Virus record (IMG/VR): IMGVR_UViG_3300034095_000254
Origin: a virus
Direction: 5' to 3' (one strand)
Length of the DNA stretch: 64,000 nucleotides
Under the pieces are notes generated by a model, which saw nothing but the letters and a program-made list of their open reading frames with translations, did no database searches and was not told where the DNA came from. Made by a program: the position numbers and the translations under genes. Shown here piece by piece: positions 1 to 21,772 of the stretch; position 1 is the first letter of the stretch, and each line of letters begins with the position of its first letter.

Positions 1-346
1 TACCCAGTATCAATTTATCAATAATAAATGGAGTAAATATCTTTTCAGATAGGTAACCAAGCATCCAGTTATAGTAAACATCTTCCATGGCACGACCATT
101 GTTTCTCATACGAGGAAGAATATTGTGATTCTTAATCTTCATAAAAGTATCAATGATGTCTTGGTCTATGTTACCTTCATATGGAACAGATAACTGCTGA
201 TTGATTTTAGTAAAGATATTATTCAAACGAGAATTCTGTTGTTGAAGCACAGACCAGTTTGGTTCTTTAATATCTTTTGCAGAGAGATACTTTTGAAACT
301 CATCCTTGCGAGTGAATCCCATTGCCTTACGATATTCTTTACTCAT
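1..346 (-). CDS. Partial CDS (runs off the window); unknown protein, possibly a restriction-endonuclease-like nuclease
   Basis: Not in the ORF track. ATG at 346 overlaps the TGA of the GNAT gene (ATGA). Open frame MSKEYRKAMGFTRKDEFQKYLSAKDI...LPRMRNNGRAMEDVYYNWMLGYLSEKIF to the window edge. The nuclease resemblance is from memory only. Confidence 0.55.
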   Translation of the reverse strand, partial: MSKEYRKAMGFTRKDEFQKYLSAKDIKEPNWSVLQQQNSRLNNIFTKINQQLSVPYEGNIDQDIIDTFMKIKNHNILPRMRNNGRAMEDVYYNWMLGYLSEKIFTPFIIDKLILG

Positions 347-984
347 ACTAAAAACTCTTCTAACGAGGGTTGTTCAAGTAGTGCGTCTCTTAACCATGCC
401 TTACCAACTGCATTAATTGCTGCTTGGCTCTTTGCTCTTTTCTTATCACCCCACTTGTATGCTTCCAAACCCTCAGCACGGAATTGATCTCTGGCTTTGT
501 ATGGTGGTAGTGCTTGTAGTGGATTCACGATGGCAAAGTCACGATAAGCAATCTGCTCTGCTCTAGTTGGAAACAGTGGTTGGTCTGAACGAAGTGAACC
601 TGTTGGATCAACTGCCCACCAAATCAAACCATTCTTGTAGTGCCATGTAACTGAAGAAGGAGTGCAAGACATCTTTAGTCGAGTCATCTTTCTTTCTTTA
701 ACTGCATAATCAATCCATGCATCCCAACACTTTGATGCATAACCCTTACCTTCATTTCCTTCAAGTGTAACAATCTCGTAGAGATTACTGTAACCATCTC
801 GATTAAATGTGGCAAAGATTAAACAAACAACATCACCATTCACTTCAAGAGCCATTGGTGGTGCTTTGTCATAGTTATGAAAGCGATACCATAATGAATG
901 TGCAGCCGATAAGAATTTTGTATTCTTACCAGCTGGACTAGTTTTAATTAACTCTTCAACTCTCGTTGAATTAACAAAGTTCAT
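343..984 (-). CDS. GNAT-family acetyltransferase with putative C-terminal sliding-clamp-binding peptide
   Basis: GNAT motif A-like IVTLEGNEGKGYAS. Likely start MNFVNS at 984, overlapping the upstream stop. Ends PSLEEFLV*. Confidence 0.7.
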   Translation of the reverse strand: MNFVNSTRVEELIKTSPAGKNTKFLSAAHSLWYRFHNYDKAPPMALEVNGDVVCLIFATFNRDGYSNLYEIVTLEGNEGKGYASKCWDAWIDYAVKERKMTRLKMSCTPSSVTWHYKNGLIWWAVDPTGSLRSDQPLFPTRAEQIAYRDFAIVNPLQALPPYKARDQFRAEGLEAYKWGDKKRAKSQAAINAVGKAWLRDALLEQPSLEEFLV

Positions 985-1663
985 ATTGTAAGTCCACCGC
1001 ATCCTCAATAACTTCTTTTTCAATTGTCATTGCAAGTTGGTCATCAAATGTAATGTAATGGTTCATCAAAGTGTTAATAGGGAATCCTGGAACTTCTGCT
1101 CGTTTTGGTACATCAGCAGTAGAAGTAATTATACACCCATTTGATATAGAAGTCAAGTATAATGGTCGTTTACCATTGCGATAGAATCTAATAACTTTAT
1201 CAACATGCAACTCTATAACGGCAAGACTAGAATCTTTCCAACGAATCAATGGGCTGATGCAATCTTCTGCTGTGTGTAAGATTAGTTCTGTATCGTTTTT
1301 AGTTTCGCAATCATAACCATATAACTCTTTCCACTTCTCAGGTAACTCTTGAGTGATAACACCATTGTGGACTACGGAAAGATTCTCATTGGCAATTGGT
1401 TGATTGAATTCTAAGTCACTGGTGCTGTAACGACAGTGACCAATCATATAAAGACTTCCATCTTCATTGACATAACTTGGAAAGTTAAATGGAAATTCAT
1501 CGGCAGGAACTGGTCGCTTCTCAGTGATAATCTTTCCATGTTTAACATAGGAGATTCCAGTGGCATGCATTCCTCGAATCTTGGACTCAAGGAACACACG
1601 ATGAAGCATTAAGAAATCCTCGGCACGAGGTTCTTTAATAATTGCGCCAATGACTGAACACAT
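971..1663 (-). CDS. Stand-alone class II (Ntn) glutamine amidotransferase domain protein
   Basis: N-terminal Met-Cys nucleophile, RGxxATG, GHCRYST, HNGVI and NDTE motifs. No synthetase domain (230 aa). Confidence 0.85.
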   Translation of the reverse strand: MCSVIGAIIKEPRAEDFLMLHRVFLESKIRGMHATGISYVKHGKIITEKRPVPADEFPFNFPSYVNEDGSLYMIGHCRYSTSDLEFNQPIANENLSVVHNGVITQELPEKWKELYGYDCETKNDTELILHTAEDCISPLIRWKDSSLAVIELHVDKVIRFYRNGKRPLYLTSISNGCIITSTADVPKRAEVPGFPINTLMNHYITFDDQLAMTIEKEVIEDAVDLQYELC

Positions 1664-3024
1664 TAAAAGAATCCTTCAAGTGAGTTTGCCTTTTGTGACT
1701 CTGGATGATACTTCAACAGAGTTTCTTTACCAAGTTTTGATTCAAGGTATTCATACCACTCTTCAGACTCCCACATTGCAGAACTCACACCATTCCAAAG
1801 ATGTCGTTGTGAACCATCTTCATACTTTTGGTCTGGATGTTCTTTGTTAAGTCTTCGTTGTTCAACAAATTCATAACGACAATCTTCATACTCTTTAGAT
1901 CCCAACTCAGCCATCTTCTCACGGAAGTAAACAACCAATGAGATTCTCTCTGCTTCTTCGTCCATCAATTCAATTTGAGTATTGCCATGCATCACTTCAT
2001 GATTGTTAATGAGTAGCAAATCTCCAGGTCTTGGATTGACAGCAACACGATACTCTGGTGCTACAAGATAGCATCCTTTGTAGTTACCATTATTACTCAA
2101 TGTCAATAGATTGGATAGACCTTCAGTGAAGTCACCAGCATCGAAGTGACATGCAGTTCTGAAAGATTTATTTACAGTGACAGTAGTAAATGGAGTTCCA
2201 GGAACTAAGAAAGCAGGATCCAGTTTCTTTGCAGCTTCCATCTGATTGTTATATCGCCATGGCAACAAGTCTTTGAAACCTTGTGCAAGTTGCTGAAGGA
2301 ATGGATATGCCATGGCAAACTTTGCTGGTTCACGAGCAGTGTAAGATGTCGCACGACCATAAGGAATGCGAGGATAACGATCGAACCATCCAGCAATACC
2401 AGACATTACACCATTGGCATAGGTAGTTGCGCAGACATACGCTTTCTCTACTCGTCTTGCCTCAATGACCATTTCAGATGCATCTAGTTTACGAACTTTC
2501 TCCACCCACTCGTTGAACACAAATCCATCTTTCTTGACTGCTTGAATACCCCAAACATTATTTCGTGTGGATGGTTTGTCAGTCTTACCTTCGTGCTTGG
2601 CTTTAATAACATCAATTGGATCTCCATCCAACGATGCTTTAGGATCCAAGAAGTATTCAATAATTTCTGATTCGTATTCAGTGACCCATTCACGATTACC
2701 CAACTTCTCTGCTCTTGGACCTGCAGCCATACCTCTGTTCTGAGTTTCAGTTGCTGCTTCACGGAGACCAATATACGCTTGGTCTTGTTGTTCTTTACTG
2801 AAGTAGTTCTTACGGAACTTCAAAACAATTCGTCTTTCGTCTGCGCCTGTGTCGCATGATGAACATTCTTGGTCGCAATCTGCTTGTGTGGCTAGATCGC
2901 AATTGGCTGGCATGTAAACATCACAGTCCTCTTCAATGAGAAAATCATAATGTGACTCATCAGGGAATTGCCCCAACATATGAGTCATATCAAGTTTCTC
3001 TTTTGCTACAATTACTTTTACCAT
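1663..3024 (-). CDS. TET/JBP-family 2OG-Fe(II) dioxygenase (5-methylpyrimidine oxygenase)
   Basis: TVTVNKSFRTACHFDAGD (HxD), GDLLLINNHEVMHGNT (distal His) and RISLVVYFREKM (2OG-binding Arg) match the TET/JBP core. Ends NSLEGFF*. Confidence 0.85.
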   Translation of the reverse strand: MVKVIVAKEKLDMTHMLGQFPDESHYDFLIEEDCDVYMPANCDLATQADCDQECSSCDTGADERRIVLKFRKNYFSKEQQDQAYIGLREAATETQNRGMAAGPRAEKLGNREWVTEYESEIIEYFLDPKASLDGDPIDVIKAKHEGKTDKPSTRNNVWGIQAVKKDGFVFNEWVEKVRKLDASEMVIEARRVEKAYVCATTYANGVMSGIAGWFDRYPRIPYGRATSYTAREPAKFAMAYPFLQQLAQGFKDLLPWRYNNQMEAAKKLDPAFLVPGTPFTTVTVNKSFRTACHFDAGDFTEGLSNLLTLSNNGNYKGCYLVAPEYRVAVNPRPGDLLLINNHEVMHGNTQIELMDEEAERISLVVYFREKMAELGSKEYEDCRYEFVEQRRLNKEHPDQKYEDGSQRHLWNGVSSAMWESEEWYEYLESKLGKETLLKYHPESQKANSLEGFF

Positions 3025-3033
3025 AACTTTCTC

Positions 3034-4428
3034 CTAAAACTTAAATCCGTCAAAAGATTTTTCTGCTTTTTGTCTGCGACCAAAATTACTTTTATCAAAC
3101 ATGGGTTCATCGTCATCACTCTTTCCAGAGTCACTCAGCGTTTGTGCCGATGCCTCTACATCATAGAGTTTCATCTTCGCTCGATCAACTCCAATAACAA
3201 ATCTCTTATAGAATCCTGGATCGTTATAGCGATTCTTCAACTGTTTAACAATAATCTGATTCAATCCTTCCAACTCCTCATTGCTGACCAAAGCAAACAT
3301 AAAGTCAGCTGTCGCTGGCAATCCAAAAGATTCAGAGGTATCTTCAAGTCCTGGATCCGAGTTTGTGAATCCAGAACGAGTTGTTTGAGTGGCTGAGACA
3401 ATGGGAACATTATACTCAACTGCCAATCCTCTTAGTTCTTCTGCAATGCTCTTAATATATGTATAAGAGTTAATACTTCCACCTTGCTTCATTCGTTGAC
3501 TCGCACAAATATTGAGATAGTCAATGAAGATAATATCAGGTTTAAATTCTCGTTTCAACTTTAGTTCTTCCAGCAGTGCACGGAAATGACCAGAGTGAGC
3601 ACCAGCAGTTGGGTATTCTTTGACAATTAGTTTACCTTTAGTCTTAGCTGTAATCTTAGCAATACGACTTTCGTAGATATCCCTGTCAATAACTTTTAGT
3701 TCATCCATGGTTAGGTTAAGAAGATTCGCATCAATTCTTTCAGCGATTCGTTCTTCTGCCATTTCCATAGTTATGTATAATACATTTTTTCCTTGGGTTA
3801 GACAACCAGCACCCACATGGCACATAAACAAAGACTTACCAACACCAGTGCCAGCAAGACAAATGTTAAGCGTTTTCTTTGATAGTCCACCCTTAGTGAT
3901 TTTATTGAACATGTCAAGGTCGAATGCAACCTTCTCTTCCACCCTATGATAAAAATCATACCTCTCGTTGTGGTCATCAAGATAGTCATGCCCAATATGA
4001 TTATCAAATGAAACGGCAAGAGCATCAGAAAGAATAGATGGTATAGCATCTTTCGTTTGGTGCTTATCGTTTCCGTCAATGATTCTGATTGCCGAGAGAA
4101 CTCCATTATAAACTGCCCTATCTTTACAAAACTTTTCAGTATGTTCTAACATCCAGTCTTCATTGACTGGTTCCTGACTCAATGTGCCGATAAAGTCGCC
4201 AAGTTCAGACAACTCTTTATCATTGAGATCTTTCCTATTACTAATTTCAATCTGTAGGATTTCTTTGGATGCTGGCTTGTTATACTTCGTAAAGAAAGAA
4301 ACAATCTCGTCTGCCAAGATTACTTCTTTGCGCTCTGCAAAATATTCTTTCTTGATAAATGGAATTACTTTACGACAATACTTCTCATCAAATATCAGAT
4401 TGCTCAGAATCTTTTGTTCTATTCGCAT
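3034..4428 (-). CDS. 41: Replicative DnaB-like helicase gp41
   Basis: Walker A AGTGVGKS, YITMEMAEE, IFIDYLN, SATQTTRSG, KQLKNRY. Confidence 0.97.
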   Translation of the reverse strand: MRIEQKILSNLIFDEKYCRKVIPFIKKEYFAERKEVILADEIVSFFTKYNKPASKEILQIEISNRKDLNDKELSELGDFIGTLSQEPVNEDWMLEHTEKFCKDRAVYNGVLSAIRIIDGNDKHQTKDAIPSILSDALAVSFDNHIGHDYLDDHNERYDFYHRVEEKVAFDLDMFNKITKGGLSKKTLNICLAGTGVGKSLFMCHVGAGCLTQGKNVLYITMEMAEERIAERIDANLLNLTMDELKVIDRDIYESRIAKITAKTKGKLIVKEYPTAGAHSGHFRALLEELKLKREFKPDIIFIDYLNICASQRMKQGGSINSYTYIKSIAEELRGLAVEYNVPIVSATQTTRSGFTNSDPGLEDTSESFGLPATADFMFALVSNEELEGLNQIIVKQLKNRYNDPGFYKRFVIGVDRAKMKLYDVEASAQTLSDSGKSDDDEPMFDKSNFGRRQKAEKSFDGFKF

Positions 4429-4723
4429 CAATTTCTGTTCCGCCTGTATATGTTAAATTATTTTCTTCCACACCTTGATGCAGCAATTCTTGTAGTATAT
4501 CACCTATGTATGCTTCAAAAGGTTTGAAGTCTGTCATACCTTTATCAGCATTCTCAAGTATCTCATACTCAAACTTTAAATGCAAGGAGTCATTCTTTTC
4601 ATCTGGATCGAATGACACCTTTCCATATGTATAGATTATACCCTCAAACGCACCTTCAGTCAACTTAATTGCTTGAAGTCCACTGTGTTTGTGTTCAAGA
4701 ACTTGGTATCTAAAATTACTCAT
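4388..4723 (-). CDS. gp40-like head vertex assembly chaperone (by synteny)
   Basis: 111-aa ORF between uvsX and gp41, the T4 position of gp40. Confidence 0.55.
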   Translation of the reverse strand: MSNFRYQVLEHKHSGLQAIKLTEGAFEGIIYTYGKVSFDPDEKNDSLHLKFEYEILENADKGMTDFKPFEAYIGDILQELLHQGVEENNLTYTGGTEIDANRTKDSEQSDI

Positions 4724-5789
4724 CGAACTCTAACTCTTCCAATGCTTTGTCTAAGTCATCTTCTTGCATCATCTGTCCACCTTGACCGATTGAATACTTA
4801 CTCTTTACAAAATCATAGAATGATTTGCTTGTAAGAATTGATAACCAGAAGTCTTTGTTATCAGTTTCTTTGATACGATATTTCTTGGCTTCTACTTCAC
4901 CAGTCTCTGGATCGCACTTGGAATACCATCCGTTACTTGGTTTGACCACATGCTTGGATTCAAGAGCAAGGTCAAGTAGACCAGACCACTTACTGAGCCC
5001 ACCATCAAAAGATACAGAAACAGGAATTTTAGATTTCTCTTTAACATAACGACTCTTCTCTACATTGATAATAAAATTGTAACCTACAATCTCAGTGCCT
5101 TCTTTTTCTTGCTGACGACCAAGAATGTATACATTATCTGCTGAATACATTGCACCAGTACCACCACCAACGATTGCTTTCGGGAACATTCCGATCTCCA
5201 TATATGTATGGTTCACTACAACGAGTGGAATATCTTTCAAGTTCAAGTGTGGAGTTACCATACGGAACAATGACTTCATCTGTTTTGCTCTTGACATATC
5301 TGCAACAGACTTACCTTCCATGGCATCTTCAACTTCTTTCTTAGAAGCCAGATTACCAATGGAGTCAATGACAATAATCAAATGATCACCACGCTCTACA
5401 TTGGACAACTGTTGCATAATATCGAACTTCAATTGTTCCACATCAGTGAGTGGAGTATGAACAACTCGCTTTGTATCAATACCGAATGTATCGAAGTAAG
5501 ACTGCGGAGTACCGAACTCTGAATCATAGAACAACAACGCTGCATCTTCATACTTGTCCATGTAGGACTTAGCCATTAGCAATGAGAATGCTGTCTTGAA
5601 GTGTTTGCTTGGACCAGCCCACATTGTAATTCCTGGAGTAAGTCCACCATCAAGACGACCAGACAAAGCCACATTGATGATTGGAACAGAAGTAGGAATC
5701 ATATCCTTCTTCTTAAAGAACTTTGATTCTGATAGAATCGCAGAGTCTTTGATGGTACTATTCTTTTTAATCTTATCTAAAATGCTCAT
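4716..5789 (-). CDS. uvsX: UvsX RecA-like recombinase
   Basis: AGPSKHFKT, FYDSEFG, DSIGNLASKKE, VGGGTG. Confidence 0.97.
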   Translation of the reverse strand: MSILDKIKKNSTIKDSAILSESKFFKKKDMIPTSVPIINVALSGRLDGGLTPGITMWAGPSKHFKTAFSLLMAKSYMDKYEDAALLFYDSEFGTPQSYFDTFGIDTKRVVHTPLTDVEQLKFDIMQQLSNVERGDHLIIVIDSIGNLASKKEVEDAMEGKSVADMSRAKQMKSLFRMVTPHLNLKDIPLVVVNHTYMEIGMFPKAIVGGGTGAMYSADNVYILGRQQEKEGTEIVGYNFIINVEKSRYVKEKSKIPVSVSFDGGLSKWSGLLDLALESKHVVKPSNGWYSKCDPETGEVEAKKYRIKETDNKDFWLSILTSKSFYDFVKSKYSIGQGGQMMQEDDLDKALEELEFDE

Positions 5790-5790
5790 A

Positions 5791-6042
5791 TTAACCTTTC
5801 AGGAATTCTAACAGTTTTTCTTCGGTGACCATACCCACTTGTCGTCTGATTTCTTTTCCAGTGTCATCAACTAAAACCATAGTTGGAACAGAACGAACTT
5901 TATATTCTTGAGCCATCATCATCTCATTATCAATATCATATTCTTCAATTGGAATATCAATCTTATCTTTTGCGCCATTGATGACCATTGAGAGTCCTTT
6001 GCATGGACCACACCAATCGGCATAAAATTTTAACAGCTTCAT
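5791..6042 (-). CDS. Thioredoxin
   Basis: WCGPC active site, SVPT cis-Pro motif, AGGAG RBS. Confidence 0.93.
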   Translation of the reverse strand: MKLLKFYADWCGPCKGLSMVINGAKDKIDIPIEEYDIDNEMMMAQEYKVRSVPTMVLVDDTGKEIRRQVGMVTEEKLLEFLKG

Positions 6043-6053
6043 TTATATCTCCT

Positions 6054-6082
6054 ATTATACAGTAACTTTTGTTGCAAGGCAA
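6054..6082 (-). promoter_or_regulatory. Sigma70-like promoter upstream of thioredoxin/uvsX/gp41
   Basis: Minus strand TTGCCT-N17-TATAAT. Confidence 0.7.
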
Positions 6083-6634
6083 CTATGGATTGTTCTTGGA
6101 ATGTGGAACATCAAACACAAATGTAATTCTAACAACATCACCAACATTCTTAGTTCCATGTAGTAGTTTATTGTTGAACCAAATCAAATCACCAGCATCA
6201 ACTTTTACAGATTCTCCACCAACAGTGTAAACATATGAACCTTGTATTGCAAGATGGTATCTGTCTCTTGTAAGATAATAATCTCCGATGTCGATATGTT
6301 GCCCAACTTCTCCACCAACTGGCAACGAAAGGAATCCGCATCTATCAAATTTCTTAAAGTTTCTTTTTAAGAATCCTACAATCTCTGTGTGTCTGCTATA
6401 CGCTGGTGTTTCTACGGATGATTGACTATCACCCACATATTGATTTAGGTCTTTTACAGTACCAATTTTTAATTGAAGGACACCTGCTTGTACTGCAGGG
6501 AATCCATACTCATTAACTAAATCGTGCACACCTTCAATATCTTTTTGAGCACCCCAGTCCTCTGGGTATTGTTGCAACTGTTTCAGTATCTTAGAAACAT
6601 TGATACCTTTTTTGATAACTCTAATGTTAGCCAA
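6083..6634 (-). CDS. Asp/Asn beta-hydroxylase-like 2OG-Fe(II)/cupin oxygenase
   Basis: GQHID (HxD), RYHLAI, WFNNKLLHGTKN, RITFVFD. Confidence 0.8.
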   Translation of the reverse strand: MANIRVIKKGINVSKILKQLQQYPEDWGAQKDIEGVHDLVNEYGFPAVQAGVLQLKIGTVKDLNQYVGDSQSSVETPAYSRHTEIVGFLKRNFKKFDRCGFLSLPVGGEVGQHIDIGDYYLTRDRYHLAIQGSYVYTVGGESVKVDAGDLIWFNNKLLHGTKNVGDVVRITFVFDVPHSKNNP

Positions 6635-9122
6635 AGAAATCCTCCAATGAACTTTCTTCTTGAGTCTTCCAACCTAGTGGTTCAATAACAATCTGTAATG
6701 CATCGAGGAATACCTTCTCAAACATCTTGTCATAATCTATGTATGATTCTAATTTAAACTCTTTTGGCAGAACCTGTGGGAATGCAATCACATCTTCCTG
6801 TAGAGGATTCGGAGTGCGCACATACACAAACTTAATCTTATCACCATCACGGATTGGTTGATACTTCTTATCGATGCCGAATCGCTTGCAGTGGTGATTG
6901 AACAACAACGCACCACGAACATGAATTGGTGTACCCTTTGTATAAATTGGAGAGCCAGTGTACTGCTTCAATCCATTTATACCTCTCGGGAAAGCAATCT
7001 CTTGAATCGGTAATTTGTCAAACTCTTTTCTAAACTCCATAACATATGTATGTAGATCTTTTTCACCCCCAGCGAGGATAACTTGAAGTGAATCACGCAA
7101 CTTTGTACGAATAACCGCAGGTGTAGACGACTTGACCATCTCCAGACCCATAACTTTGATCTTAGGTTTCGCAAACTGAACTCCTTCTGAGTTGTGAACA
7201 TTAATGATATATCTTTTCTTGGCAGTCCAGATGGCTTTGTCCGCAAGAACTTCTCGCTTCATGACCATCTTCTGACTGTATGCATTCATGTAATCTGATA
7301 GTTCGGTGTAACCTTGATCAATGAATGGTTGAAATACTTCTTCGCAAATCTTATCCATGTACTTGATCTTCTGCTCAGTGTTCTTACCTTCGCAAACTTT
7401 CTCGATGAGATGTTCAAGTGTAAGATAGATTGAGTCAGTGTCAATGGCAATGACAAAGTCTTTACCTTCTGTCTTGAGAGTTTTGTTGAGGAATGCATTC
7501 AACTTGTTTGCCATCCAACGAATGGATAGTTGACCAGAAGTCGTAATACCCTCTGCCATTCTAATATCAAAGTAACGGAAGTACTGATTGCCCATCGCAC
7601 CATAAGCAGAGTTAAGAGCAATCTTCATAGCCATCTGCAGGTTGTTAAGACGAGAGATATCTTTTAGCAGGTGAACCTTTGTCTTATCGTTTTGGTATTC
7701 CTGTTCAATCTTTAACATCTGTTTCTTAAACTTGGAACGATTGATATACATCTCTTCCATCAACTCAGGCATGAACCCTTTGATGTCTTTGCGATATGTC
7801 CAACCATTTGCAGTCATGGCAAGGTCTCTTCGTTTAAGATAGTCAGTATCAATCTCTTTGTTGAGTAACTTGTCAACAGTGACTGACAACTTCTCGCTCG
7901 TTAGAGTTTCTGGACTGATGTTGTATTGCATGATCAAGTGAGGATACAAACTGTTCAAGTCAAAGGAAACAACCCACTTGTGCATACCAATCATTGGATC
8001 TTTTACATAAGCACCTTCGAACTGGGAATCTTTTCCAGAGTAAGTCTTAGCTGGAATGACAATACCTTTCTTACGAAGGTGATTGTAGATGATAGTGTCC
8101 CACATACGAACCTGAGAGTAAACATCTTCAGGATTAATCTTAGCATTGTATGCCATGGTTAGGTGCAACTCAAGCAGACGCATCTTGTCTTCGAGTTTGT
8201 CAACTAACTCCACATCGTGAATGTTATATTCAACAAAGTCTGTCCAGTAATTTGTGTAGAAGTCTTTAAAGTCAACTCCAGGATTCTCTTTCTTGGCATC
8301 ATCTAGTTCTTCACCAGCAATGTAATCCAAACGATATGACTCTTGCTTTGTATATGTATATTTCTTGTAAAGTTCAAGATAGTCTAACTGAGAGATACCC
8401 ATGATGTCATAGTGAATCTGTTCATTACCTTTAATGAAAGTCTTTCGTTGATTGACATAACCCCATGGACTAATCTTGTTGGCAAATGTATCACCCAACT
8501 CTCGCTGAATGCGATGAATCAAGTAAACATTATCAAAGAAGTCTGTGTTCCAACCAGTGATGACATCTGGGTAGTTACCTTGCCACCAAATCATAAACTC
8601 TTTGAGCATGTGTTGTTCGTCACGACAATTGACCATCGTAACATCAGAACGAGGAGACTTATACTCACCATACTTTGTTTGAGCAAAGGTAACAACCTTC
8701 TTTGATTGAAGATCCTTGATAGTGATTAGAAGAACTTCTTCGTTGGCAGACTTGATATCTGGGAATCCATTCTCAGTTTCAGTCTCAATGTCAATTGTGA
8801 ATACTTTAATCTGTTCCATATCCCAGTTGACATCGTCTTCGTAAGTGTCACTGATATATTGATATGCGTAGTTGGTGTTACCGTAAACTGGGAATCCTTC
8901 AACACCTTCGTATCGTTTTAGGAAGTCACGAGTCTCACGGATACCTCCAGGTTTTATTTCATCAACGAATGTATCTTCAAGAGTCTTCCATTTTGATGGA
9001 ACCTTAGAAGTGACAAAAAGCGTAGGATAGAAATCTACCTTACGCTGATATGCCCTGCCGTTTTGATATCCCCTAACGAGGATCTTGTCGCCCACTGGGT
9101 GGACGCTGGTATAAAATTCCAT
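6627..9122 (-). CDS. 43: Family B DNA polymerase gp43
   Basis: DIETE exonuclease I motif, SFDLNSLYP, KIALNSAYG, DTDS, KKRY. C-terminal clamp-binding peptide SSLEDFFG. Confidence 0.98.
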   Translation of the reverse strand: MEFYTSVHPVGDKILVRGYQNGRAYQRKVDFYPTLFVTSKVPSKWKTLEDTFVDEIKPGGIRETRDFLKRYEGVEGFPVYGNTNYAYQYISDTYEDDVNWDMEQIKVFTIDIETETENGFPDIKSANEEVLLITIKDLQSKKVVTFAQTKYGEYKSPRSDVTMVNCRDEQHMLKEFMIWWQGNYPDVITGWNTDFFDNVYLIHRIQRELGDTFANKISPWGYVNQRKTFIKGNEQIHYDIMGISQLDYLELYKKYTYTKQESYRLDYIAGEELDDAKKENPGVDFKDFYTNYWTDFVEYNIHDVELVDKLEDKMRLLELHLTMAYNAKINPEDVYSQVRMWDTIIYNHLRKKGIVIPAKTYSGKDSQFEGAYVKDPMIGMHKWVVSFDLNSLYPHLIMQYNISPETLTSEKLSVTVDKLLNKEIDTDYLKRRDLAMTANGWTYRKDIKGFMPELMEEMYINRSKFKKQMLKIEQEYQNDKTKVHLLKDISRLNNLQMAMKIALNSAYGAMGNQYFRYFDIRMAEGITTSGQLSIRWMANKLNAFLNKTLKTEGKDFVIAIDTDSIYLTLEHLIEKVCEGKNTEQKIKYMDKICEEVFQPFIDQGYTELSDYMNAYSQKMVMKREVLADKAIWTAKKRYIINVHNSEGVQFAKPKIKVMGLEMVKSSTPAVIRTKLRDSLQVILAGGEKDLHTYVMEFRKEFDKLPIQEIAFPRGINGLKQYTGSPIYTKGTPIHVRGALLFNHHCKRFGIDKKYQPIRDGDKIKFVYVRTPNPLQEDVIAFPQVLPKEFKLESYIDYDKMFEKVFLDALQIVIEPLGWKTQEESSLEDFFG

Positions 9123-9691
9123 TAAACTTGTTTTCCATACATTAGTTGCATTGCATCAAGTGCACAGTCGTGGACAGGATGATGTTTGATAACTTCGTGT
9201 CGTTTGAACAGAGGATGATCCACTTCTACATAACCATTCGTGGTTCCAAACATAATGTCAACTGCAGTTCTCACATCTCTCCATACATTATACCCTGTAA
9301 TCTCTTGCAAGTCAAATTTAACAGCAAGCGAATCAATAGCCATCTGGTCTAATGAACCTCGTGCCCACATAGTTTGTTTATCCGCATTTGGGAATTGCTT
9401 CATGTAATCATAGAACTTTTGCATTCCATTTTCCACAGTCATGTCCTCACGGGATGGATCAAGAGAAGTCTTACGAACATATTCGTGTTGACCTTTCCAC
9501 CACTCAAGTGTAGATTTAGATGCAGTACGACCAACACCCATCTGTTCCTTGACATCGAACTTTACAAAACATGCATTGTCCAATAAGTCTTGATAGGTTG
9601 GTCGTTTCTCTGGATCAAAGTGAACCATAGCTGCAGAAAGAACCACACAATTGGATTCCACTCCCAGCGTTTCTACATCGAACATAAACAT
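9122..9691 (-). CDS. dexA: DexA-like DEDD 3'-5' exonuclease
   Basis: FDVETLG, WARG..D, RDVRT, HHPVHDCALD. Confidence 0.85.
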   Translation of the reverse strand: MFMFDVETLGVESNCVVLSAAMVHFDPEKRPTYQDLLDNACFVKFDVKEQMGVGRTASKSTLEWWKGQHEYVRKTSLDPSREDMTVENGMQKFYDYMKQFPNADKQTMWARGSLDQMAIDSLAVKFDLQEITGYNVWRDVRTAVDIMFGTTNGYVEVDHPLFKRHEVIKHHPVHDCALDAMQLMYGKQV

Positions 9692-10002
9692 TATAGCACT
9701 CTTCCTTCACCTTCTTTGGTGAAGAATGATTTGATCTTTTGCTCTTTAGTCCATTCAGCAGTATAATCATTATCAATATCACAAAGAGTAATTGCTTCTT
9801 CTTCAGTAAGAACACGATGTGATGTAATCACTTCTGGAAGTGCCAATTGAGAAAACTCTTTTGCGTCTTCACAAGTAACATCATCCATTGCCCACTCTGG
9901 ATTAGTTGCTGGTGCTTCCACCATATATCGCATACGATATGATTGAATGGCTTCGACCAAAACCCATACCGAACCTTCTTTTAATTTACTCATCATTATC
10001 AC
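9691..10002 (-). CDS. Hypothetical phage protein
   Basis: Co-oriented ORF overlapping both neighbours. Confidence 0.75.
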   Translation of the reverse strand: MIMMSKLKEGSVWVLVEAIQSYRMRYMVEAPATNPEWAMDDVTCEDAKEFSQLALPEVITSHRVLTEEEAITLCDIDNDYTAEWTKEQKIKSFFTKEGEGRVL

Positions 10003-10351
10003 CTTTCATTGCCAGTGCTTTGTTTAAAGATTTCTGCGCATGACGCAGACCAAATTCCATCTCATTCTTTTGTTGTCTTACCTTTTCTAACTCACGAGAA
10101 ATTTTCAGATAAGTGTCATACAAATCGTTGGTATTTTTCTGAAGTGCCTCAACATATGTAGCTACTTTATGAATAGTTACCCATGTACCATCAGCCAGTT
10201 TTGTATGACCATCACGAACACGAAATTCATCAGTCCATCTTTCGTTTAGTTTGTAACTTGGCATTGGTTCAAACAGAAACAATTCTTGTTCTCCTAATTT
10301 CTTTAGGAGTGGATTGAATTGGTTGTCAATAGATTCTTTACCGTAAAACAT
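9986..10351 (-). CDS. Hypothetical protein with C-terminal coiled coil
   Basis: Coupled ORF with heptad-like C-terminus. Confidence 0.75.
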   Translation of the reverse strand: MFYGKESIDNQFNPLLKKLGEQELFLFEPMPSYKLNERWTDEFRVRDGHTKLADGTWVTIHKVATYVEALQKNTNDLYDTYLKISRELEKVRQQKNEMEFGLRHAQKSLNKALAMKGDNDE

Positions 10352-10881
10352 TATTCATTCTCCTCATACTCATATTCTTCAGTACGACCAGACATTTCTG
10401 CATGGATATCGCAAAGAGTTGTATGCCAACCATCAGTATATGTTTTACCTGCAGCACCGCATGATTCGCATGTACGATAACTCATAGACTCTGCGAAAGA
10501 AATGTATTGATAATGTTTGTCAGTTGCAGCTTGAACATAGAATCGAAGTCCACCGAACTTCTCTTTTACTTGAACAGCAACTGGAACCTTCAGTGTTTCT
10601 TCATCTAGTTTTACTTTGGCTTCGTCAATCTTTTCTTGGGTGATAATATCTTTACTACCTTCCCAGCGTGGTTGATCAACTTTATCTTTGATAGATTCAT
10701 AACGACTTTGTGCTTGGCGATAATCACTAGTCAATAGACCACAAAGAACATCGATGATGTTATACCAACCATCACCACATTCAAGTCCCCAGCACATGGC
10801 TGTGGTGCGCATATCTGCATTACGATCTTTGAAGATCAGCGGATACTTTGCACAGAGTGCTTCGTCTAATTCTTTTCTCAT
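10351..10881 (-). CDS. Conserved phage hypothetical protein (QVKEKFGGLRFY family) with C-terminal Zn-ribbon-like motif
   Basis: GDGW, KEKFGGLRFY, CESCG...LCDIH. Confidence 0.75.
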   Translation of the reverse strand: MRKELDEALCAKYPLIFKDRNADMRTTAMCWGLECGDGWYNIIDVLCGLLTSDYRQAQSRYESIKDKVDQPRWEGSKDIITQEKIDEAKVKLDEETLKVPVAVQVKEKFGGLRFYVQAATDKHYQYISFAESMSYRTCESCGAAGKTYTDGWHTTLCDIHAEMSGRTEEYEYEENE

Positions 10882-11033
10882 GATAATTCTCTATCCATTT
10901 GTAACTGCCAGTGTTTGTATAATTCTTCGTATGCTCGAAGAACTTCGTCAGGTACTTTGTTACCATTCTTTATTTCTTCTTCAATGGCACGACCTAGTGT
11001 TCGAGCCAATCTAATTTCTTCGAAGTCTAACAT
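10878..11033 (-). CDS. Small hypothetical protein (51 aa)
   Basis: Not in track. MLDFEEIRLARTLGRAIEEE...MDRELS*, GGAG RBS, ATGA overlap with the downstream gene. Confidence 0.75.
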   Translation of the reverse strand: MLDFEEIRLARTLGRAIEEEIKNGNKVPDEVLRAYEELYKHWQLQMDRELS

Positions 11034-11035
11034 AA

Positions 11036-11407
11036 TTAATCTCCATACCAAGTTCTATGATTTTCAGCTACATGTTCAAGTCCATCGTATTCGCCAATGT
11101 GCCATTCAACATCATCTGGAATATCCAAGATTGCTAGTTCTGATGCCCAACCCCATGAATCTTTACCCAACTCTTCAATCACTGCGATCAAATCTGGATC
11201 ATTGCGTTGTTCATAGAACTCATACTCACTTAGGTATGTCGCATCAGATTGTGGACTACCAGCTTTGTAATAGTCTGAATCATTTCCACGAATTGGATAC
11301 TTGGCTGGCACTTTATCGAATGCGATACCTTTGCGTTCAAGTAACTTCTCGAATGCGATATTTGAGATACCGAATCCACCAAAACATCTATTAATTACTA
11401 CTTTCAT
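11036..11407 (-). CDS. Conserved phage hypothetical protein
   Basis: MKVVINRCFGGFG...RNDPDLIAVIEELG...EYDGLE, a pattern familiar from many phages. Confidence 0.8.
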   Translation of the reverse strand: MKVVINRCFGGFGISNIAFEKLLERKGIAFDKVPAKYPIRGNDSDYYKAGSPQSDATYLSEYEFYEQRNDPDLIAVIEELGKDSWGWASELAILDIPDDVEWHIGEYDGLEHVAENHRTWYGD

Positions 11408-12708
11408 TTTATTACCTTTGAGTTGTCTGCAACATCTTTGTCGTCACGCAGTTCAATAAACACTGGAAGAAACAAAGATTCTTCTCCACTTTTGTTCTTG
11501 ATCCTAGCATTATACTTCACTGCCACGATTTTGTCAACTAAATTTTCTTTCCAATATTGCTTTCGTTGTGCATCATTGAAACCAGATCCTACATTTACCT
11601 TTACAATTCCATCTGCGGATTCACAGATAATTGCACCAAGCATACCTACTGCTTTACCCTTACCTTCTTCGACTGCAACAATCTTAAGATCGCATTCTAA
11701 TTCACCTTTGAATTTAATCTGAGTCTTGCTTCGTTTGTCTTCCCATTCACCACTACCATCTTTAAGGATGATACCTTCATATCCATCTGCAAGATAACCT
11801 TGGAAAATGTCTTGTGCTTCTTCTAATGTTTGCACGATGGTTGATGTCACAGACCAAATCTTTTTGCCTGCAGATTCTTGTTTATCTACAATTGCTTGTA
11901 AAGTGGCGAATCGTTTTGAATATGGAGTCAAACAATATCCATCAACGAATGCTACATAAGGAATCAAATCCCAAACAGTTGCATGAACCTTTGCTGCATC
12001 TTCTGCAGAGATTGTACCCTTGTTTGCTTTGTTGAGGATACCATTACCAGTCTGACGATCAGCGAACTGCATTGTCATGTCATCCATAACCAACAACTCA
12101 CCATCAAATACACAATCAATATTACCAGCAAGTGCAGCGAACTCTGCTTCTAGATTACCCAACAACAGAATCTGTTTACCGTTTCGACTACGGAATTCTA
12201 CCTTACCATCACGGACAATCGCATTGAATCGCATACCATCCATCTTCATTTGAGCATAGGCTGGGAACTTAATCTTGTCAACCAACTTCTGTTCGAATGG
12301 ACTGCATAACATACATGGGTATTCAGGAATCAAACCAGACCAAACTTTGTTGGCAGTCGATACATCAACACCACACTTCAGATCTTTGGAGATGATTCTC
12401 TCCAGTACCTTAGCATCGTCAGCCGATACGGATGAGAGAAGCATACGGAGATATTCAATTGCTGCATTACCAGTAACGACTCTTTCCTTCAAGTCATACA
12501 ATGCCAACATGGCTTGAGTGAGACTTGTTTGTTTTGAGTCAGTGGTATACTCAGGAATCTTTCGTTGATAGAATTGAGTAAAAGGATCCAGTGCTAGCCG
12601 AATAACCTCACGCAGTGTTTCGTTATCGCTCTGTGCGTTTAATTGGTCGATCTTGAAATTGCGTGAGGCATTTTCAGCAAGACTGTTTAGAAATTCATTT
12701 ATGTTCAT
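11404..12708 (-). CDS. 30: ATP-dependent DNA ligase gp30
   Basis: KMDGMR adenylation motif, FDGEL, EGIILK, VGSGF, FLPVF. Confidence 0.97.
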   Translation of the reverse strand: MNINEFLNSLAENASRNFKIDQLNAQSDNETLREVIRLALDPFTQFYQRKIPEYTTDSKQTSLTQAMLALYDLKERVVTGNAAIEYLRMLLSSVSADDAKVLERIISKDLKCGVDVSTANKVWSGLIPEYPCMLCSPFEQKLVDKIKFPAYAQMKMDGMRFNAIVRDGKVEFRSRNGKQILLLGNLEAEFAALAGNIDCVFDGELLVMDDMTMQFADRQTGNGILNKANKGTISAEDAAKVHATVWDLIPYVAFVDGYCLTPYSKRFATLQAIVDKQESAGKKIWSVTSTIVQTLEEAQDIFQGYLADGYEGIILKDGSGEWEDKRSKTQIKFKGELECDLKIVAVEEGKGKAVGMLGAIICESADGIVKVNVGSGFNDAQRKQYWKENLVDKIVAVKYNARIKNKSGEESLFLPVFIELRDDKDVADNSKVIK

Positions 12709-13054
12709 TCATCACTCCATCAATATGTTTACACTTACCATGATATTTAAAACCGATACAACTACAGACCATACCATTTTCTGATTCTTCTACGGTATAT
12801 ACATGGTCTTTGCTACCTTTAATTTCCCAAATTTTATTCGTGGACTTCTGTCCTTCGAAGTGTAGGTTTCGTTTGAGAACTTTGAATTTACGATATCGAG
12901 TATCAAACCGCATTGGCTTGCTGAACATCTTAAAGTTTTGTGGATTGTTCCACATGAAGTAACCAAAGATTTTGTCCATCGATTCATTCATAACATATGT
13001 ATGATTCGGTTGAAAGTCTATATCCCAAACAGTTATTTCTCTAACAAGAATCAT
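12695..13054 (-). CDS. SWIM zinc-finger protein
   Basis: YTV...CSC IGF...CKH. Confidence 0.75.
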   Translation of the reverse strand: MILVREITVWDIDFQPNHTYVMNESMDKIFGYFMWNNPQNFKMFSKPMRFDTRYRKFKVLKRNLHFEGQKSTNKIWEIKGSKDHVYTVEESENGMVCSCIGFKYHGKCKHIDGVMNEHK

Positions 13055-13428
13055 GCTGCTTCCCGAAAGTAACCATAGGGCAGACCATTGAGGTAACAGA
13101 AGTATTCCCAGTCACCATTTGCATGTCCAGCGTCCATGATCCAGCGAAGTGCAGTAGTACGATCCTTCGCACCCATACAGATTGTATTAGTGACATGCTG
13201 TTCAAACTTCACCACTGCTTCTGCCTCACGCTCTTTGCGATCAGCTTCTTCACGCTCGATGACTCGACCGAGAGTTTCGAATTCAACCATGAATTCTTCC
13301 TCAGTCCAATTAGTGGTATCGATACCACGAGGACGAACACCATACGCATCCTTGTACATGTCCCAGAACTGGCACTGCATTTGTTCCAACACAGACATTT
13401 CTTCCCAAGATTTGAGTTCGTTCGACAT
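13051..13428 (-). CDS. Hypothetical early protein
   Basis: Start MSNELK after AAGGAA RBS, downstream of a promoter; DMYKDAYGVRPR motif. Confidence 0.75.
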   Translation of the reverse strand: MSNELKSWEEMSVLEQMQCQFWDMYKDAYGVRPRGIDTTNWTEEEFMVEFETLGRVIEREEADRKEREAEAVVKFEQHVTNTICMGAKDRTTALRWIMDAGHANGDWEYFCYLNGLPYGYFREAA

Positions 13429-15570: not shown

Positions 15571-15642
15571 TTACTTATTCATTACATACATTGTAACTTC
15601 AAAGCCAAATCTCATTTCTGTTGCTGATGGTTTTGTCCACAT
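15571..15642 (-). CDS. pqqA: PQQ precursor peptide PqqA (23 aa)
   Basis: Not in track. AGGAG RBS then MWTKPSATEMRFGFEVTMYVMNK*, with the canonical W-x-K-P...GFEVTxY (E-x3-Y) signature. Confidence 0.95.
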   Translation of the reverse strand: MWTKPSATEMRFGFEVTMYVMNK

Positions 15643-21743: not shown

Positions 21744-21772
21744 ATTATACTGTAATTAACAATAAAAGTCAA
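21744..21772 (-). promoter_or_regulatory. Sigma70-like early promoter
   Basis: TTGACT-N17-TATAAT; CCCT-N9-AGGG at 21784-21800. Confidence 0.8.

Follow-up and report, generated by a model that had tools for sequence, protein, structure and literature searches.

Among the closest described counterparts of the locus studied here is the pathway to 5-acetylaminomethyl-deoxyuridine (5-AcNmdU) of Pseudomonas phage PaMx11, which according to the main text of Lee et al. 2021 consists of the AADT gp46, the flavin adenine dinucleotide (FAD) lyase gp47, the GNAT gp48 and the kinase gp49, and whose enzymes were used there to make 5-acetylaminomethyl-dU (dU, deoxyuridine) in vitro from glycine (PMC8989533). 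The same text describes metavirome contigs with kinase, AADT, amidoligase and glutamine amidotransferase (GATase) domains, one group of which (sequences 22-25 of its Fig. 2) has TET_JBP in place of the dUMP hydroxymethylase. Phage thymine (T)-dioxygenase activity is reported in the main text of O'Toole et al. 2026, which lists GATases, kinases, AADTs and GNATs as neighbours of these enzymes (clade C1) and ties the GATase clusters to ParB-dependent enzymes (PMC13229309). Here we analyse a 64,000-nucleotide stretch of viral DNA (IMG/VR record IMGVR_UViG_3300034095_000254; hereafter the window), which encodes a TET/JBP dioxygenase, an Ntn glutamine amidotransferase and a GNAT next to a replicative helicase. 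The cassette that these genes are part of belongs to the kinase/AADT class, and its gene combination and likely product are already published: clusters of TET_JBP, kinase, AADT and GATase or amidoligase appear in the main texts of PMC8989533 and PMC13229309, so that a first-pass annotation of the window, made from the sequence alone, had overstated the novelty of the locus. What we propose as the new element is a glutamine-splitting enzyme that would serve as nitrogen source while docked on a DNA-modifying transferase.

Similar to PaMx11, the cassette combines kinase, AADT and GNAT, and both the 5-aminomethyl-dU intermediate and the end product that we predict are shared, although identities to the PaMx11 proteins are low (kinase 25% to gp49, AADT 20% to gp46, GNAT 19% to gp48). 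In PaMx11, hydroxymethyluracil (hmU) is made before replication through a thymidylate-synthase-family gene, whereas here the dioxygenase would produce it in DNA; and where the nitrogen source of PaMx11 is glycine, which a flavin enzyme trims, here an Ntn glutaminase occupies the place of that enzyme. A search confined to the cassette found no FAD-dependent glycinyl-thymine lyase. With the 5mYOX/TET_JBP clusters, as far as the main texts describe them, the cassette shares its gene families, the lack of a C5-methylase and the presumed first step; unlike the ParB-dependent subclass of T-dioxygenases, its complete relatives are without ParB. The phage 5-methylcytosine (5mC) clusters of TET, C5-methylase and glycosyltransferase likewise begin with a TET/JBP step on DNA (PMC8256090), but here there is no C5-methylase, and amine chemistry would take the place of sugar transfer; close relatives of the present TET do pair with TAGT glycosyltransferases. 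The main texts of PMC8989533 and PMC13229309 give no GATase role, product test or AADT-GATase complex, and our literature search returned neither a GATase role nor a phage pathway that makes aminomethyl-uracil in DNA with ammonia.

A five-enzyme cassette

The window is a portion of a T4-like phage genome in which the minus strand carries almost all genes. On that strand the gene for a gp41-type replicative helicase (positions 3034-4428; DnaB_C was found on the matching gene of L087, an ENA contig 99.95% identical to window positions 1-13000) is followed after a gap of 9 nt by those for the TET/JBP dioxygenase (1663-3024, 453 residues), the class II (Ntn) glutamine amidotransferase domain (971-1663, 230 residues) and the GNAT acyltransferase (343-984, 213 residues with a C-terminal helical extension; an alternative ATG lies at 1002). 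TAATG holds both the TET stop and the Ntn start, and the Ntn and GNAT genes overlap by 14 nt, which agrees with the first description of three coupled genes 3' of the helicase. Conservation was scored in 80 IMG/VR loci with a TET 73-99% identical, which are kin of one another and were counted only where sufficiently flanked. The order gp41-TET-Ntn-GNAT is kept for Ntn in 63/64 and for GNAT in 57/58 of these close loci, one of which (L067) is without both genes, and so the neighbourhood comparison that the first-pass annotation had suggested finds the three genes co-conserved. Past the window edge, L087 carries the remainder of a 225-residue open reading frame (ORF), an AADT (PF18724), a 126-residue ORF and a P-loop kinase (PF18751). 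An AADT was found in 47/47 of the close loci and the kinase in 31/31, and a distant lineage, whose TET is 40-50% identical, carries the identical five-gene set in the order Ntn-GNAT-AADT-TET-kinase. The cassette thus comprises five enzymes and extends past the window edge, with the window's three genes as its front part. The dioxygenase pattern gave 359 matches in IMG/VR, and the cassette is common among aquatic T4-like phages. In the collection of cultured phages that we searched the GNAT was found in none; DLP6, Cr30, C48C1 and S-CBWM1 carry this TET with neither Ntn nor GNAT beside it, so that none of these four is a ready test system. In Cr30, a cultured Caulobacter phage (L082), TET, AADT and a TAGT-like gene lie within 5 kb (6001-11164) and are annotated as SNF2 or hypothetical.

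We found that the dioxygenase matches Tet_JBP (PF12851) with an E-value of 1.1e-27 and a score of 96.7 bits against a cut-off of 34.9. Its model (predicted local distance difference test score, pLDDT, 88) has a TET-like fold whose top matches are TET2, CcTet and NgTET1, with FTO/AlkB ranking behind, and the HxD...H iron triad (H293, D295 and H346) together with the 2-oxoglutarate-binding R360 is invariant in 42 homologues. Profile and fold clustering therefore both support the TET/JBP assignment of the first reading; the label of SNF2 repair protein that some TET homologues bear was rejected as an annotation. As to its substrate, C5-methylase (PF00145) had no match in three complete relatives, and no ThyA-family gene, and hence no dUMP hydroxymethylase, was found in two complete relatives, both of which encode ThyX. 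With ThyX present and ThyA absent, ordinary T would be made, and the dioxygenase is the sole visible source of 5-hydroxymethyluracil (5-hmU). A search of two complete relatives and three partial ones for ParB (PF02195) gave no match, and a very divergent ParB could escape it. Because the relatives lack C5-methylase, dUMP hydroxymethylase and ParB, the substrate is probably thymine and the product 5-hmU in DNA, which narrows the choice between T and 5mC that the first-pass annotation had left open. The relatives also show what marks the phage T-dioxygenases of clades C1 and C2, namely the lack of a C5-methylase and the linkage to T-hypermodification genes. On a TET tree, in which the deep nodes are weakly supported and two branches are long, the partner sets look intermixed. 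Long TET fusions also occur (P0273, P0291, P0322, P0263 and P0264), among them TET-kinase, TET-TAGT glycosyltransferase and a tandem double-TET, and some loci have an optional 2-oxoglutarate-Fe(II) oxygenase (PF13759) in the TET-Ntn gap (L028 1670-2287, L052 7365-7961, L064 7362-7958), which may be a passenger or an additional tailoring enzyme.

The AADT (PF18724, E-value 1.6e-23) and the kinase (PF18751), both read from L087, score above their cut-offs and have the features of thymidine hypermodification, that is, a 5-hmU DNA kinase and a clade 2 AADT with catalytic Glu and Cys; AADT residues E242 and C246 are invariant and common to PaMx11 gp46 and a ViI-like AADT. In known AADTs this Cys and Glu expel phosphate to give an exocyclic methylene, which is trapped by amines, alcohols or thiols (thiols in vitro). 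The kinases and AADTs tested so far in the main text of PMC8989533 all act on 5-hmU. The slot between Ntn and AADT is variable, holding the present GNAT, an amidoligase with a shorter GNAT, another amidoligase with a low-molecular-weight (LMW)-phosphatase-like gene, or nothing; in one cluster Ntn directly adjoins AADT and the tailoring gene is absent. This variation would fit alternative ways of capping one amine. In L188 (5685-7075) the second amidoligase type sits in the GNAT slot, followed by the LMW-phosphatase-like gene (PF01451), and the same type occupies the slot in L180, L184, L192, L193, L195 and L201. Between AADT and kinase, L077 has a radical SAM gene (PF04055; 9725-11155), and L062 has ORFs that resemble it in the same gap (9848-11212 and 11716-13173).

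The Ntn protein and its proposed AADT partner

The Ntn protein matches GATase_6 (PF13522, E-value 4e-10) and has the catalytic cysteine at position 2. All of 42 homologues share residues C2, R30, G36, R78, T81, N100, G101 and D124, which line up with the glutamine site of GlmS, consistent with the stand-alone Ntn amidotransferase that the first reading had called. PurF and GlmS are its nearest solved structures, neither GATase_4 nor EgtC structures were matched, and in NCBIfam all amidotransferase matches are sub-threshold. Similar to GlmS and PurF, the protein retains the N-terminal Cys, R-loop, Q-loop, oxyanion NG and Asp anchor; unlike them it is encoded by a stand-alone gene, and the synthase partner that we propose is a DNA-modifying enzyme. 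A metabolic PurF or GlmS was considered and rejected, the synthase domain being absent.

Several observations bear on that partner. Natural fusions join Ntn to AADT (P0394, P0395), to GNAT (P0392, P0393) and to amidoligase (P0391), and one Ntn-AADT fusion adjoins HMUD2 kinases and a thymidylate-synthase-family gene on a contig without TET. Related TETs that are paired with a TAGT glycosyltransferase instead of an AADT have no Ntn gene. We observe moreover that the predicted Ntn-AADT complex scores 0.90, the best control reaching 0.00; the mark used was reached by 58/80 solved complexes and 2/110 mismatched pairs, counts that apply only roughly because our own alignments were supplied. In this model at least 89% of the contacts agree between runs and the partners have a pLDDT of at least 89; a search of the PDB gave no AADT structure. 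On the Ntn side, residues 1, 28-33, 79-81 and 101-107 are among those in the predicted interface; they correspond to the R-loop (Arg26) and Q-loop (Trp74) of GlmS, through which that enzyme couples its two active sites and opens the channel for ammonia (PMC7000685). On the other side, the interface of Ntn-linked AADTs is conserved above background (59% vs 35% in the fusion), and that of six AADTs from Ntn-less clusters is not. The modelling thus supports binding of the Ntn protein to the AADT, and combined with the fusions, co-occurrence and interface residues leads us to propose that its partner is the AADT and not the dioxygenase, with which the first-pass annotation had paired it: Ntn and AADT are fused in some viruses, they are found together in a cluster with no TET, and where AADT is absent TET has no Ntn beside it. 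In L092 (4571-5344) and L207 (4238-5011) a 257-residue gene lies beside TET, AADT and kinase with no Ntn, and the AADT of this cluster is without the predicted docking motifs.

Clamp-type tails, the GNAT and neighbouring genes

The GNAT was called with an Acetyltransf_1 match of E-value 0.003, below the Pfam cut-off, but its model shows a confident GNAT fold (pLDDT 94) with some 70 additional residues at the C-terminus; the family assignment of the first reading therefore holds on fold, its profile match being weak. We do not regard the protein as a gp48 orthologue, the likeness being too weak for that claim. We propose that it is a DNA aminomethyl-U N-acetyltransferase, and the best evidence that it would act on DNA is its C-terminal tail. 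The polymerase of T4 has the clamp-interacting peptide SLDFLF (PMC12746103), and the window's own gp43 family B DNA polymerase, which serves as the reference for the motif, ends in SLEDFFG (6630-6650, minus strand). The dioxygenase ends in SLEGFF (1666-1683, minus strand; strict pattern in 113/130 homologues) and the GNAT in SLEEFLV (346-366, minus strand; kept in 84/85 homologues), and of 85 minus-strand ORFs in the window only gp43, TET and GNAT bear such a tail, apart from one loose match. Most AADTs carry a GLExF variant, and the Ntn protein and kinase are without a tail. Judged by these tails, the gp45 clamp probably carries the dioxygenase, the AADT and the GNAT along behind the fork.

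The first-pass annotation had placed the cassette in a uvsX-40-41 transcript. It does adjoin gp41, but the GNAT probably does not lie only on the upstream transcript, since the Ntn gene contains a conserved putative sigma-70-type promoter, TTGACT-N17-TATAAT (1128-1156, minus strand), upstream of GNAT, AADT and kinase. The exact motif occurs four times in the window against 0.01 expected, and in the Ntn gene it has the identical position in 52 distinct near-lineage genes. Its codons are Leu TTG in 58/58 and Ile ATA in 58/58 cases, compared with 21% and 5.6% elsewhere in the gene. A general promoter scan was at chance level, so that the exact motif and the codon test alone are informative. Being fixed by codon choice, this promoter probably sets GNAT, AADT and kinase on a separate transcript. 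It belongs with a family of near-consensus putative sigma-70 promoters (further ones at 4635-4663, 9287-9315 and 21744-21772, and about 12 TTG-type variants), several of which are intragenic.

Between GNAT and AADT sits a nuclease-like insert, the 225-residue ORF, whose start lies at 2-346 of the window (minus strand; whole gene at 12679-13356 of L087). It is optional (8/62 loci) and stands outside the conserved core. The ORF matched no Pfam family and its Atlas look-alikes include clusters labelled restriction endonuclease; a homing endonuclease and a host-DNA nuclease are the candidates. Elsewhere in the window, a gene for an Asp/Asn beta-hydroxylase-like cupin (6083-6634, minus strand) overlaps the polymerase stop and is kept in relatives, and a 23-residue PqqA-like ORF with a strong ribosome-binding site lies at 15571-15642 (minus strand); we take it to resemble the PqqA of Methylophilaceae, presumably a hint at a methylotroph host.

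Proposed route and competing readings

Taken together, we consider it very likely that the cassette modifies thymine in phage DNA, and we lean, if only slightly, towards an ammonia route ending in 5-acetamidomethyl-dU, in which the families and residues are observed and all reactions are what we infer from them. The TET/JBP enzyme would oxidise T of newly made DNA to 5-hmU after replication, and the P-loop kinase would phosphorylate it, a reaction known from M6, ViI and PaMx11. Judging from its homologues, the AADT Cys would then attack C6 and the phosphate leave to give an exocyclic methylene. The AADT-bound Ntn protein would hydrolyse glutamine and pass ammonia to the methylene, giving 5-aminomethyl-dU, a step to which the catalytic residues, fusions, co-occurrence and predicted complex point. 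Finally the GNAT would acetylate the amine, so that the N-acyl-aminomethyl pyrimidine of the first-pass annotation stays the likely end product of DNA hypermodification and can now be specified, conditionally, as 5-acetamidomethyl-dU. Dioxygenase, AADT and GNAT would work on the gp45 clamp as it follows the fork, and the modification would likely serve to shield the DNA from host nucleases.

Some results weigh against this route. The AADTs tested in the main text of PMC8989533 take glycine, serine or putrescine, and none is known with ammonia. The Ntn-AADT complex is a prediction built on our own alignments, and the Ntn-linked AADTs are closer kin, which confounds the interface comparison and weakens it. 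Fold matches of the GNAT are generic, with polyamine and protein acetyltransferases leading, and its likeness to gp48 (19% identity) comes with an E-value of 0.007 and a probability of 5%. In addition, some ParB-less phage 5mYOXs are inactive in E. coli according to the main text of PMC13229309, and the T4 alpha-glucosyltransferase is disputed as a precedent for a gp45-binding DNA-modifying enzyme.

The alternative that survives best, which we nevertheless consider unlikely, is that the AADT adds a gamma-glutamyl compound (glutamine through its amide, glutathione or gamma-Glu-Cys through the thiol, or a gamma-glutamyl diamine), that the Ntn protein strips the glutamyl group on DNA and that the amine thus exposed is acetylated by the GNAT, the product perhaps being an undescribed base such as an N-acetyl-cysteinyl adduct. 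An Ntn site holds the glutamyl group regardless of which amide is cleaved, and the AADT methylene captures thiols in vitro. Moreover, the Ntn gene is paired with an amidoligase in many relatives and fused to one in one case, a pairing that resembles EgtA and EgtC, which are a ligase and Ntn hydrolase pair. However, PurF and GlmS fit the Ntn protein best and GATase_4/EgtC does not match, the predicted interface sets its active-site loops against AADT protein, and it has no clamp tail. Furthermore, no amidoligase was found by protein-query search in two complete relatives of the present variant, the search having been redone in this way after the Pfam amidoligase profile overlooked a genome known to carry one.

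More improbable still is that the core up to 5-aminomethyl-dU holds and the GNAT transfers a different acyl group or has a small molecule or a protein as its substrate. The sub-threshold Pfam score and generic fold matches would allow this, as would the C-terminal extension and the variation of the slot among relatives, but it sits poorly with a clamp-type tail in nearly all homologues, the Ntn-GNAT fusion, a GNAT with a constant place next to AADT in two gene orders and the PaMx11 precedent. We think it very unlikely that the substrate is 5mC, made by a host or distant methylase and turned into an aminomethyl-cytosine derivative. Burke et al. did propose a kinase acting on 5hmC (5-hydroxymethylcytosine) in certain contigs that have a C5-methylase, and the window is part of its own genome, so that the absence of a methylase rests on relatives; against this stand the three complete relatives in which PF00145 is unmatched and the 5-hmU-directed activity of all tested kinases and AADTs. 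Least probable of all is the three-enzyme route of the first-pass annotation, in which oxidation to the formyl or carboxy form is followed by amination or amidation by Ntn and acetylation by GNAT: these genes do lie side by side here, and phage 5mYOXs are capable of iterative oxidation in vitro, but AADT and 5-hmU DNA kinase, which would supply activation and C-N bond formation, are found at every locus with long enough flank, Ntn is found with AADT minus TET and TET minus Ntn where AADT is absent, and a lone Ntn domain comes without synthase domain, reductase or ATP-dependent activator.

Returning to the ammonia route, we would suggest as a possible though doubtful extension that AADT and Ntn form a two-subunit glutamine amidotransferase with a DNA base as acceptor, a role for which the papers we searched had no example in this enzyme class, that the cassette works on the clamp, where gp45 would serve this dioxygenase as ParB serves the ParB-dependent subclass, and that the amine is a branch point from which GNAT or amidoligase would finish bases not yet described. 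The route offers a testable role for the GATase genes that the main texts of PMC8989533 and PMC13229309 list, unexplained, beside phage thymine-modifying enzymes, and a clamp requirement could account for the inactivity of some ParB-less phage dioxygenases in E. coli. If true, these phages would turn normal DNA into amine-bearing DNA after replication using T, O2, ATP and glutamine, which would add a second way to reach 5-aminomethyl- and 5-acetamidomethyl-uracil and give a useful handle for labelling.

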